Of a stretch of DNA of 64,000 bases, positions 2,393-61,164 are shown piece by piece. Both the position numbers and the translations under genes were made by a program. The first letter of the stretch is position 1, and every line of letters starts with the position of its first letter. The stretch is from Octopus vulgaris (taxonomy: Eukaryota): positions 144,026,001 through 144,090,000 of the forward strand of contig OX597817.1 of assembly GCA_951406725.2 (NCBI GenBank), in the 5' to 3' direction. Below the pieces are notes generated by a model, which did no database searches, had not been told where the DNA came from, and saw only the letters and a list, made by a program, of their open reading frames with translations.

Positions 2393-3024
2393 TAACCATT
2401 TAACTAATCGATTTTTAAAAATTAATTGTTCAGTCAATCAACCAACCAATCAGCTTGGTTTGTGAGAGTCCTTTCATCTCCCTTCATGGCCTCATCAATG
2501 ACTCAACCTTCTTACTCAGTATAAATATAGAATCTTGGGAGGGTCATTATGCTAATAATAAACACATGCACTGGTTCTCTTTCACTTCTTTATTTGTCAA
2601 TTAGTTAATCATTTATTATTATTATTAGTCAAGTTGTTAACCATTTAACTAATTGATTTTTTAAAATTAATTGTTCAGTCAATCAACCAACCAATCAGCA
2701 TGGTTTGTGAGAGTCCTTTCATCTCCCTTCATGGCCTCATCAATGACTCAACCTTCTTACTCAGTATAAATATAGAATCTTGGGAGGGTCATTATGCTAA
2801 TAATAAACACATGCACTGGTTCTCTTTCACTTCTTTATTTGTCAATTAGTTAATCATTTATTATTATTATCAGTCAAGTTGTTAACCATTTAACTAATTG
2901 ATTTTTAAAAATTAATTGTTCAGTCAATCAACCAACCAATCAGCATGGTTTGTGAGAGTCCTTTCATCTCCATTCATGGCCTCATCAATGACTTCACCGT
3001 CTTACTCAGTATAAATATAGAATC
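2393..3024. repeat. 245-bp tandem repeat, about 2.6 near-identical copies
   Basis: TAACCATTTAACTAAT recurs at 2393, 2638 and 2883. Confidence 0.92.
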
Positions 3025-3254
3025 TGAAAACTAGGAAATGAATCTAACTGATCAATTGACTGATCAGATGATTAATCAAACAATCAATTGGGTAATTGAT
3101 CAAATGTTTAACTAGTTGACAAATAAAGGTTGCAAACCTCTTTGGGGGATATCAAAATCCTATGAAAGTACTGGTTTTGTTACCGATACAAAGAATATTG
3201 AACATTACATTTATTACTCAATTGCAAATTAACTGTATAAACCGTGGTTTATAC

Positions 3255-48148: not shown

Positions 48149-48832
48149 GTGAGTAGATGATTATTTTCACCTGTGATGCTAATTAATAATAATGTTGTTG
48201 ACTCTGGTTGTCAATGTTTTTATTAGGTAAGCAAGATTGCCACCTGGTTAAAGTAGTGGGATGGTTACTTCACTGCCATTATTCCATTACTACATTGCTG
48301 CCCTAGATGGAGCAATTTTTGTTGTGAAAATACAATGACAGTTAATTATGGATTAAATTTATTTTCCAATACCTCAGATCAGTTAATTCTTGTGACAAGG
48401 TATCGGAACATTCAATTGTCCTTAGTTGTGCTAACTTTTGAAACCAGTTACCAGATCATCTAGTTGTCTTAGTTTAGATAATTCCTGAGAGTAGCTATCA
48501 GATCATCTGGTTACCCTCAGTTCACCTAACTCTTAAAGACTATGTACCAGATAATCTGATTGCCTCAGGTTACCCAATACTTGACAGCAGCTACCATATC
48601 ATCCAGTAAGTATTGCAAACTTGACTTTATCTTGTCATTTTATTCCGTATGAGATTTATCTTTATTTACTCAGACATTATGTAATGGTGCAGGCATGGCT
48701 GTGTGGTAAGAAGCTTGCTTCTCAACTACCTGGTTCTAGGTTCAATCCCACTGCCTCGGGCCAACCAAAGCCTTGTGAGTGGATTTGGCAGGCAGAAACT
48801 GGAAGAAAAAGAATTACAATGAGAAATGTTAT

Positions 48833-49118
48833 AGTTCTATATTTAAGAGACGAATAATTATGTACATTATTTACATTTGATGGTTAAGAGCGCAGGCTAC
48901 TAACCCCAAGATTCTAAGTTCGATTCCAGGCAGTGACCTGAATAATAATAATAATAATGATAATAATAATATCGAAAAATACCTTAGGAATGAGAACCCA
49001 GGTTCGAAATTTCCCCAAGACACCTGAAGAAGGCTGGAGGGTATATCAGCCGAAACATTGTGTTAACAACAAACTAGATGAGGACAAATATCTGTCAAAT
49101 GTAAATAATGTAAATAAT
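48833..49118 (+). mobile_element. Second copy of the tRNA-headed hammerhead element, preceded by an inverted copy of its own 3' end (48833-48880)
   Basis: TGGTTAAGAGCGCAGGCTACTAACC...GTTCGATTCC, (AAT)n, GACAC-CTGAAGA-AGGCTG..CAGCC-GAAACATT-GTGTT; homologous to 32334-32667. Confidence 0.75.
49019..49064 (+). ncRNA. Minimal hammerhead ribozyme motif
   Basis: GACAC CUGAAGA A GGCUG-loop-CAGCC GAAA CA UU GUGUU; perfect 5-bp stem II. Confidence 0.65.
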
Positions 49119-60632: not shown

Positions 60633-61164
60633 TAACCCTTTCGATACCAACCTGACTGAAACCGGCTCTGGCTCTGTAGTACAAATGTCTTGTTTTCATA
60701 TGTTTTGAATTAAAATCTTGCACCAAACCTTAGTCACAATTTATGTTCCTAAGACTAGCTTAATGATAATTAAGTTACGGAGGTGTACTTGCATAGCAAG
60801 TGACTTGATCTGAGATTGTGTGCTGGAACGTAAACAATTGCAGTGTGGAAGGTGTTTAAGCCATTTAAGAAACACACAAAAACCATTAGATTCACTTCAT
60901 CTAAATTTAATTTGCCAAAATATTTTTGTTGCTTTGAGACCATGACCTGTTCACCGACAAAATTCTGTGCTGCATGGAATTTTGTCAGTGAACAAGTCAC
61001 GGTTTCAAAGCAATGGAAATATTTTGGCAAATTAAATTTAAATGTTGAAGTGAATTTAACGGCTTTTGATAATTAAGTTACTTTACTAAATTCTTCGTTA
61101 TATTTCAAATTGATTGAAAGAAACACAGAGCATCTCCACAGAAATATGGTAACAAAAGGGTTAA
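60633..61164. mobile_element. piggyBac-like MITE with nested insertion (60779-61066)
   Basis: TTAACCCTTTCGATACC...GGTAACAAAAGGGTTAA; duplicated TGATAATTAAGTTAC around the insert. Confidence 0.78.

Follow-up and report, generated by a model that had tools for sequence, protein, structure and literature searches.

A candidate tRNA-type promoter in the pseudo-LTR of a coding Penelope/Poseidon-type element of Octopus vulgaris

At positions 48833..49118 of a 64-kb stretch of Octopus vulgaris DNA (the window, meaning the whole of the DNA analyzed) lies what is probably a dead, 5'-clipped, back-to-back insertion of the pseudo-LTR (pLTR) of a coding Penelope/Poseidon-type element, a PLE. This pLTR starts with a tRNA-derived A/B-box promoter that likely drives Pol III transcription. 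Drawn from sequence evidence, this reading has in our estimate a probability of about 0.7. The candidate tRNA-type promoter in a coding PLE is the new part; the inverted segment is ordinary for PLEs.

The insertion, its ribozyme and its parent element

The pLTR unit is present three times in the window: at 32333-32666 on the minus strand, at 48833-49118, and as a fragment pair at 12468-12562. The features of these copies are:

48833..48880, minus strand: inverted arm, the last 48 nt of the pLTR, matching the 3' end of the 32.4-kb copy at 45/48 positions
48865-48833, minus strand: tail within the inverted arm, which ends at body 168 and belongs to the tailed end class
48881..48937, plus strand: tRNA-like head, +15 to +71, colinear with genomic tRNAs (best tRNA-Arg)
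48917-48927, plus strand: B box in the head; the A box is clipped and its last 3 nt remain
48938..48972, plus strand: CTG + (AAT)n spacer, also separating head from body where copies are ORF-linked or in tandem
48973..49118, plus strand: body, the end of the leader and the first 43 codons of the PLE ORF, in open frame
49019..49064, plus strand: predicted minimal type I hammerhead, called from its sequence, column counts over 141 copies and an architecture as in PMC4209133
32333..32666, minus strand: solo pLTR copy with a complete head (A and B boxes), mixed trinucleotide spacer, hammerhead and tail
12468..12562, no single strand: third copy, head-to-head, with a tailed inverted arm (12468-12510) and a tail-less arm (12512-12562)

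The first-pass annotation described 48833-48880 as the reverse complement of the family's own 3' end, fused to a clipped tRNA head; the match of the inverted arm (E 1.7e-15 within the window) and a head that begins with +15 at 48881 bear this out. The direct arm stops at body 144, a tail-less end that lacks the ~34-nt tail of the inverted arm. Target duplications are absent at this copy, where the best direct repeat is 6 nt, and at the 12.5-kb copy, where it is 7 nt. The body carries the ATG start codon of the PLE ORF at 48990. The (AAT)n spacer is the internal, length-variable 5' leader of this ORF, and is an internal microsatellite rather than a target. Its length lies anywhere between a few units and several hundred bases, and its sequence drifts into other trinucleotides (32500-32596 minus; L004, L016, L020, L187), which makes the pLTR family a large source of microsatellites. 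The difference between spacers that had been pointed out earlier is there, with (AAT)n in 48833..49118 and (AAG/CAG/CGA/CAA)n at 32.5 kb. Just after 49118, GGCATATG resembles a head start; it is absent after other tail-less ends and we ascribe it to chance. With its A box clipped and its stem III mutated, the copy reads as dead.

Several other repeats lie in the same window. The left flank of the insertion (48691-48805) is a truncated copy of the tRNA-headed repeat of the 27050 type. A long near-perfect inverted repeat at 60885-61060 is probably a MITE, and its matches to miRNA models fall far below the gathering score. At 2393-3127, a 245-nt unit stands three times in tandem, two of the copies being 98% identical.

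The hammerhead of 48833..49118 is built from stem I GACAC/GTGTT, the core CTGAAGA (49024-49030) with one extra A, stem II GGCTG/CAGCC with five perfect pairs, and GAAA at 49052-49055, with a predicted cut after 49059. Its position at 49019-49064, its CTGAAGA core and its perfect stem II agree with the earlier description; the 32333..32666 copy has a mismatch in stem II. Stem III reads GAAACATT versus GAAACGTT in most copies, through a G>A change at 49057 (G in 70% of 141 copies), and the stem III word of the family is GAAACGUU versus GAAACAUU here. Minimal PLE hammerheads require an ACGT palindrome for pairing as dimers (PMC4209133), so that an A at 49057 should break the palindromic stem III of the dimeric ribozyme in this copy. 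Across copies, N7 alone among the core positions has two states (T 93, A 45, other 3; n=141), and its change is a third-codon-position D/E change in the PLE ORF. Apart from N7, the core is intact in 103/141 copies. As evidence of selection on the ribozyme the N7 variant is weak, and the ribozyme of 48833..49118 is damaged.

Rfam and ARAGORN, run on the window, both missed the hammerhead and the tRNA-like head and returned only microsatellite-driven miRNA noise; the calls of both features therefore rest on motif reading and alignment. In single-strand folding, no hammerhead formed from the 32.4-kb copy and only stems I and II from 48833..49118. Incomplete single-strand folds are expected because the motif is dimeric. 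We make no claim of a pile-up of 5' ends at the cut site: 9/62 ends fall in a 7-nt window against 3.9 expected (P 0.02), a count in which one locus was counted twice and whose site overlaps a GTTAAC palindrome.

The coding element appears on both sides of the unit. Sequence upstream of the head is common to several copies and holds an RT fragment in locus L013, which was used as a query against the genome to collect RT-bearing loci. In 12/20 extended loci, the order is RT, GIY-YIG-type C-terminus, stop, ~30 nt, head, (AAT)n and hammerhead body. The RT domain PF00078 (RVT_1) scores above the cut-off 1.3 kb upstream of the head. The C-terminal domain gives no Pfam GIY-YIG hit; we call it GIY-YIG-type from its motifs and because it aligns weakly (E 9e-6) with a PLE that is itself GIY-YIG-positive. 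A distant query, a 39%-identical protein, gave 117 matches, of which 18 were fetched; all 18 belong to the same family (85-93% identical DNA), with the head after the ORF in 13/18, only pre-head sequence (by BLAST) in one, and four ending earlier. At the other side of the unit, the body continues into the ORF N-terminus in 20/29 loci, with the head upstream in 6. Taken as a column majority over 27 copies, the ATG of the body opens a single 2.5-kb frame of 834 codons, which has YVDD at 535 and VYSIP/YKGET at 726-741; copy 48833..49118 keeps 43 of these codons open. Between RT and EN motif the majority ORF has no Cys pair; a Zn-finger-like linker motif at this place marks Neptune/Nematis.

Because the head follows the ORF and the body runs into the ORF start, the unit is to be read as the pLTR of a coding element: head, spacer and body together form, by their sequence context, the pseudo-LTR of an autonomous Penelope/Poseidon-type element and not a separate SINE family. 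The SINE label of the first-pass annotation fails at this point, since the unit, tRNA-like head included, is the end-repeat of a coding element in the loci just counted (13/18 and 20/29). As a family assignment it is wrong, although the short copies work like SINEs. The element has a single ORF with RT followed by a C-terminal GIY-YIG-type EN, a pLTR that includes the first ORF codons and holds the hammerhead, and an inverted 5'-truncated copy at the 5' junction with a 30-40-nt tail on one end only, all as in EN+ PLEs. It shares with tRNA-derived SINEs an A/B-box head near the 5' end of full-length copies, clipped in 48833..49118. Two properties separate it from them: the unit with its head is contiguous with the ORF on both sides and is not a distinct non-autonomous family, and it has two fixed non-repetitive 3' ends with no simple-repeat or A-rich tail. 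Nor are its random insertions tandem arrays of non-coding hammerhead units, as non-LTR retrozymes are; they are solo or head-to-head pairs.

A Pfam GIY-YIG search of the genome brought up other PLE families, a 781-aa ORF with its relatives, as possible partners of the unit; none matched it, and they were used as controls. The 781-aa family (L101, L102:5713-8055 minus) is young and distinct from ours. Many of its copies retain an intact RT + GIY-YIG frame, its 3' region is rich in tandem repeats, and it shows no canonical hammerhead within 1.5 kb of EN. More than 100 proteins (P0003-P0122) are 50-65% identical to the C-terminus of our element, which is above expectation for distant hosts; a horizontally moved relative is a possible explanation. 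Among named proteins the closest come from Octopus, and the other repeats look like octopus SINEs.

Copy number, junctions and mode of insertion

As a random sample we took 1 Mb in 100 stretches, each 10 kb long and placed at round positions set in advance; 19/100 stretches contain an insertion, or 19 per Mb, which extrapolates to ~53,000 genome-wide (32,000-83,000). ORF sequence beyond the last 60 nt is present in 1/19 of these insertions. Such brevity would be expected if a separate tRNA-headed SINE had captured the 3' end of a PLE and moved in trans, or, in a softer form, if solo pLTRs had become self-propagating SINE lineages. One site adds to this case, being G in 17/50 arms linked to the ORF side and in 1/23 head-start arms, which could mean separate short sources; however, the way in which the loci were retrieved biases this comparison of alleles, and the site is, in addition, a CpG. 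Against such a capture, the head belongs to the coding element in every locus that has kept the element's 3' end, and we find no sequence specific to short copies: even the CTA variant of 48833..49118 occurs in the ORF-linked locus L013. We regard a separate SINE as improbable and retain the pLTR of a coding element.

The junctions point the same way. Under one automatic rule applied to the 1 Mb, 10/22 pLTR clusters are head-to-head within 30 bp and 0/22 are tail-to-tail; one insertion is counted as two of these 22 clusters and two more are short matches outside the 19, and by eye 11/19 insertions are inverted. Three control repeats from the window, taken as LINE-driven SINEs by their appearance, give 12/266, 0/68 and 0/139 head-to-head clusters, or 12/473 pooled (Fisher P 1.4e-9). 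The comparison of inverted junctions with those of other SINEs that was proposed with the first description thus comes out in favor of an excess in the pLTR family. The 3' ends of arms, collected from 199 sources (window, random and search-derived loci), are bimodal: 67/132 lie at body 128-150 and 65/132 at 164-172, with none between. One tailed and one tail-less end, differing by a tail of ~34 nt, are combined in 40/41 head-to-head pairs (P 2e-11). Direct repeats of at least 11 nt (one mismatch allowed, three element bases per side included) flank 25/41 pairs, as opposed to 1.6% of mismatched pairings. From the one-tail rule and the target duplications it follows that each head-to-head pair is a single insertion event.

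These data bear directly on the idea that the family is an ordinary LINE-driven SINE whose inversions come from twin priming or from the chance adjacency of two copies. One control repeat, the very common tRNA-headed family of 27050-27445, does have a few head-to-head clusters, 12 within 30 bp versus 3 tail-to-tail (n=266, random 1 Mb), a small excess that is unexplained. In twin priming as known from L1, the inverted part is a 5' segment free of overlap with the 3' end, whereas both arms of the pLTR pairs hold the same 3' sequence, and no simple-repeat 3' tail is present. The tail rule in 40/41 pairs and the lack of tail-to-tail pairs among the 22 clusters also speak against this idea. A LINE-driven origin is largely refuted and we consider it extremely unlikely.

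Insertion by PLE machinery, which had been proposed at first reading, is upheld by the inversion excess and the one-tail rule. An inverted junction, a single tail and target duplications are known PLE behavior; the anatomy of the pairs matches the general description of PLEs in PMC8557442 and that of rotifer Pen2a, for which a 9-bp duplication is given (PMC3846280), and the earlier remark that an inverted partial pLTR at the 5' end is typical of PLEs agrees with both. The same junctions, at short shared words, come back in loci independent of one another (L003, L015, L030; L005, L023), which would fit microhomology joining. An informal look at the flanks of the pairs gave no support for microsatellite targeting.

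A model of insertion can be put forward in three steps. First, the GIY-YIG nuclease of the element would cut both strands ~11 nt apart. Second, each cut end would prime reverse transcription at one of two internal sites, at about nt 118 and 151 of the ORF. Third, the two cDNAs would be fused head to head, which leaves a tail on one arm and none on the other. In the anole, Poseidon protein acts on both strands, cutting and extending each, and reverse transcription begins at two internal sites, one of them 111-118 nt into the ORF, that bound the tail (PMC11167929). The one-tail rule in 40/41 pairs, together with duplications of ~11 nt, provides genomic support for two-ended priming, a model that links this in vitro result to the unexplained head-to-head insertions of PLEs.

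At four loci (L006:1029-1504, L337, L340, L343; compare L057 and L240:2861-5116 minus), a young, unrelated RT element (RVT_1 and a weak zf-RVT, in pieces 97-99% identical) lies in or right after the (AAT)n spacer. We take it to be an R4/Dong-like LINE. Given this position at (AAT)n, the PLE seems to provide landing sites for a LINE that targets microsatellites.

The tRNA-like head as a candidate Pol III promoter

The head aligns colinearly with genomic tRNAs, best with tRNA-Arg among 30 loci, and its acceptor stem is unpaired. The A box, TGGCGTAGTGG, matches the consensus TGGCNNAGTGG at 11/11 positions and the B box follows 33 nt later; the consensus for both boxes and their spacing is that of SINE promoters (PMC8969392). 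The 5' starts of 55 arms that bear a head, in loci chosen without regard to it, fall inside the head (22, over 68 nt), in -8..+3 (23, over 12 nt) or further upstream (10, two of which are palindrome artefacts). That is, 23/33 arms that reach the head start stop in the 12 nt just before the perfect A box, a ~16-fold higher stop rate. Most head-start arms are solo or have an unsymmetrical, unrelated partner. The stretch -7..+3 is a near-palindrome, GCCC-AC-GGGC, on which several symmetrical hairpin junctions sit (L014, L027, L045), so fold-back explains part of the 5' pile-up.

The column majority of the ORF contains no TTTT where synonymous-codon shuffles predict 2.9 (P 0.03), and TTTT and TVTTT together occur once versus 5.4 expected (P 0.0065). 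TVTTT runs act as weak Pol III terminators, as measured in mammalian cells (PMC8466645). Both tests set a column majority against single natural ORFs and have small expected counts, and the mammalian motif list was added after the first of them. Single copies do have TTTT runs, 27 in all, at scattered places and each in at most 3/17 copies. Depletion at P<0.05 was seen in 0/7 long control ORFs, and the ORFs of two other PLEs carry ~6 terminators per kb. The sole weak terminator is TCTTT, 228 nt after the ATG and 77 nt downstream of the tail. Neither the local loci nor the 18 fetched of the 117 distant-homologue matches contain a head-less sister family that could serve as a control for terminators. 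Phe makes up 1.3% of the ORF versus 2.5% in 107 aligned homologues; since these are not independent of one another, we give the difference no weight.

All of this could in principle belong to an ordinary Penelope element transcribed by Pol II, in which the head is what remains of a SINE once inserted into the pLTR, the 5' pile-up arises by fold-back of the palindrome or at a chance Pol II start, and the lack of T-runs is compositional. Precedent is on its side, with Inr/DPE elements in Drosophila Penelope (PMC2377424), a TATA/Inr in rotifer Pen2a and palindromes reported at inverted junctions (both PMC3846280). So are the -7..+3 palindrome with its hairpin junctions and the lack of an RNA signal in three runs, and TT dinucleotides are low across the ORF (93 vs 118). 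Fold-back does not account for head-start arms that have no partner or a partner from elsewhere in the unit (L061, L064, L223, L239, L258, L008, L010, L016, L025, L107 and the 32.6-kb copy). A relic is at odds with an A box that matches the consensus in full and with the kept box spacing, and codon shuffles that keep composition still give P 0.0065 for the missing terminators. We judge a purely Pol II-driven element unlikely, and the A/B-box head remains our preferred promoter.

RNA reads from three runs of one study (~6% of each) map equally to both strands, no molecule starts pile up at the head, and the reads lend no support to a transcript. Read depth follows the 3'-rich gradient of the copies, in libraries whose strandedness is not given and in which intronic passengers are inseparable. 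Loose read ends at -7 (296, 209 and 231 reads) reflect copy boundaries and not RNA ends. The family is ~10% diverged and may be silent.

We also propose, more tentatively and at somewhat less than even odds, a fuller account. A 2.9-kb coding Penelope element would be transcribed by Pol III from a captured tRNA promoter, its ORF purged of terminators save the leaky TCTTT past the RT-start region; it would make both an mRNA and a built-in SINE RNA, and would have seeded ~50,000 SINE-like insertions that bear a ribozyme and a microsatellite. Already in our main reading, the RNA would start ~7 nt before the head, where cDNAs from the 5' pLTR or from solo pLTRs would run off. The run-off products would be SINE-like copies of ~300 nt, and these would make up most of the roughly 50,000 insertions. 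More weakly, the single leaky terminator 228 nt into the ORF might yield two products, a short template RNA and a read-through RNA.

If Pol III transcription is real, this is a coding retrotransposon under a tRNA-type promoter, an arrangement that PMC10886601 deems implausible: Kojima holds there that autonomous elements cannot use Pol III, owing to weak processivity. Pol III transcription also leaves the translation of an uncapped RNA unexplained. It would offer a direct route for the birth of a SINE-like family from inside its own autonomous partner. Repeat pipelines would annotate the short pLTR copies as SINEs.

Relation to known systems

Among the papers listed by full-text literature searches, no title or abstract opening describes a PLE with a tRNA-type promoter or a tRNA SINE driven by Penelope. 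The text searched of the Octopus vulgaris repeat annotation makes no mention of this family, which its supplements may hold, and SINEBase yielded nothing further. The present analysis adds the inversion controls, the one-tail rule, the target duplications and the terminator depletion.

The ribozyme is essentially that of the minimal PLE hammerheads (PMC4209133), which likewise have a short stem I, an extra nucleotide between 9 and 10.1, G10.1-C11.1 and a palindromic 15.2-16.2. They too occur mostly as solitary copies, with some pairs 100-700 bp apart on opposite strands. The cut triplet is GUU, and a tRNA-like head is not described in that work.

Poseidon_Ac (PAc) of the green anole (Frangieh et al. 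2024, PMC11167929) has the same single ORF with RT and C-terminal EN and a hammerhead that overlaps the ORF start. Its RT starts lie 111-118 nt into the ORF, compared with a tail at nt 118-151 in the octopus element, and its hammerhead cuts 26 nt after the ATG rather than 70 nt. Unlike the octopus element, it is described, in the accessible text of that paper, with neither a tRNA-like promoter nor an (AAT)n leader. Pen2a_Av of Adineta vaga (Arkhipova et al. 2013, PMC3846280) resembles our element in its inverted 5' pLTR, its 31-bp tail on one inverted pLTR, a pLTR that includes the first ORF codons, and target duplications of 8-10 bp in some copies and none in others. It differs in its putative TATA/Inr Pol II promoter and in being single-copy, in contrast to ~53,000 insertions here.

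Among shorter elements, tRNA-derived SINEs share with the short octopus copies an A/B-box head, a length of ~300 nt and a high copy number, but have an independent body and a LINE-type 3' tail. Animal non-LTR retrozymes (bioRxiv 10.64898/2026.07.22.740005) are also short, PLE-related hammerhead elements; unlike the octopus copies, they form tandem arrays, and the accessible preprint text contains neither 'tRNA' nor 'promoter'. Known PLE promoters are of the Pol II type as reported in PMC2377424 and PMC3846280. The nearest parallel for a Pol III promoter derived from a small RNA and placed in the terminal repeat of a retroelement is found in the TRIMp3 elements Cassandra, Helenus and Ajax (Kojima 2024, PMC10886601). 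These are non-autonomous LTR elements of 311-1263 bp, whereas the candidate promoter of the octopus element sits in the pLTR of a coding PLE.
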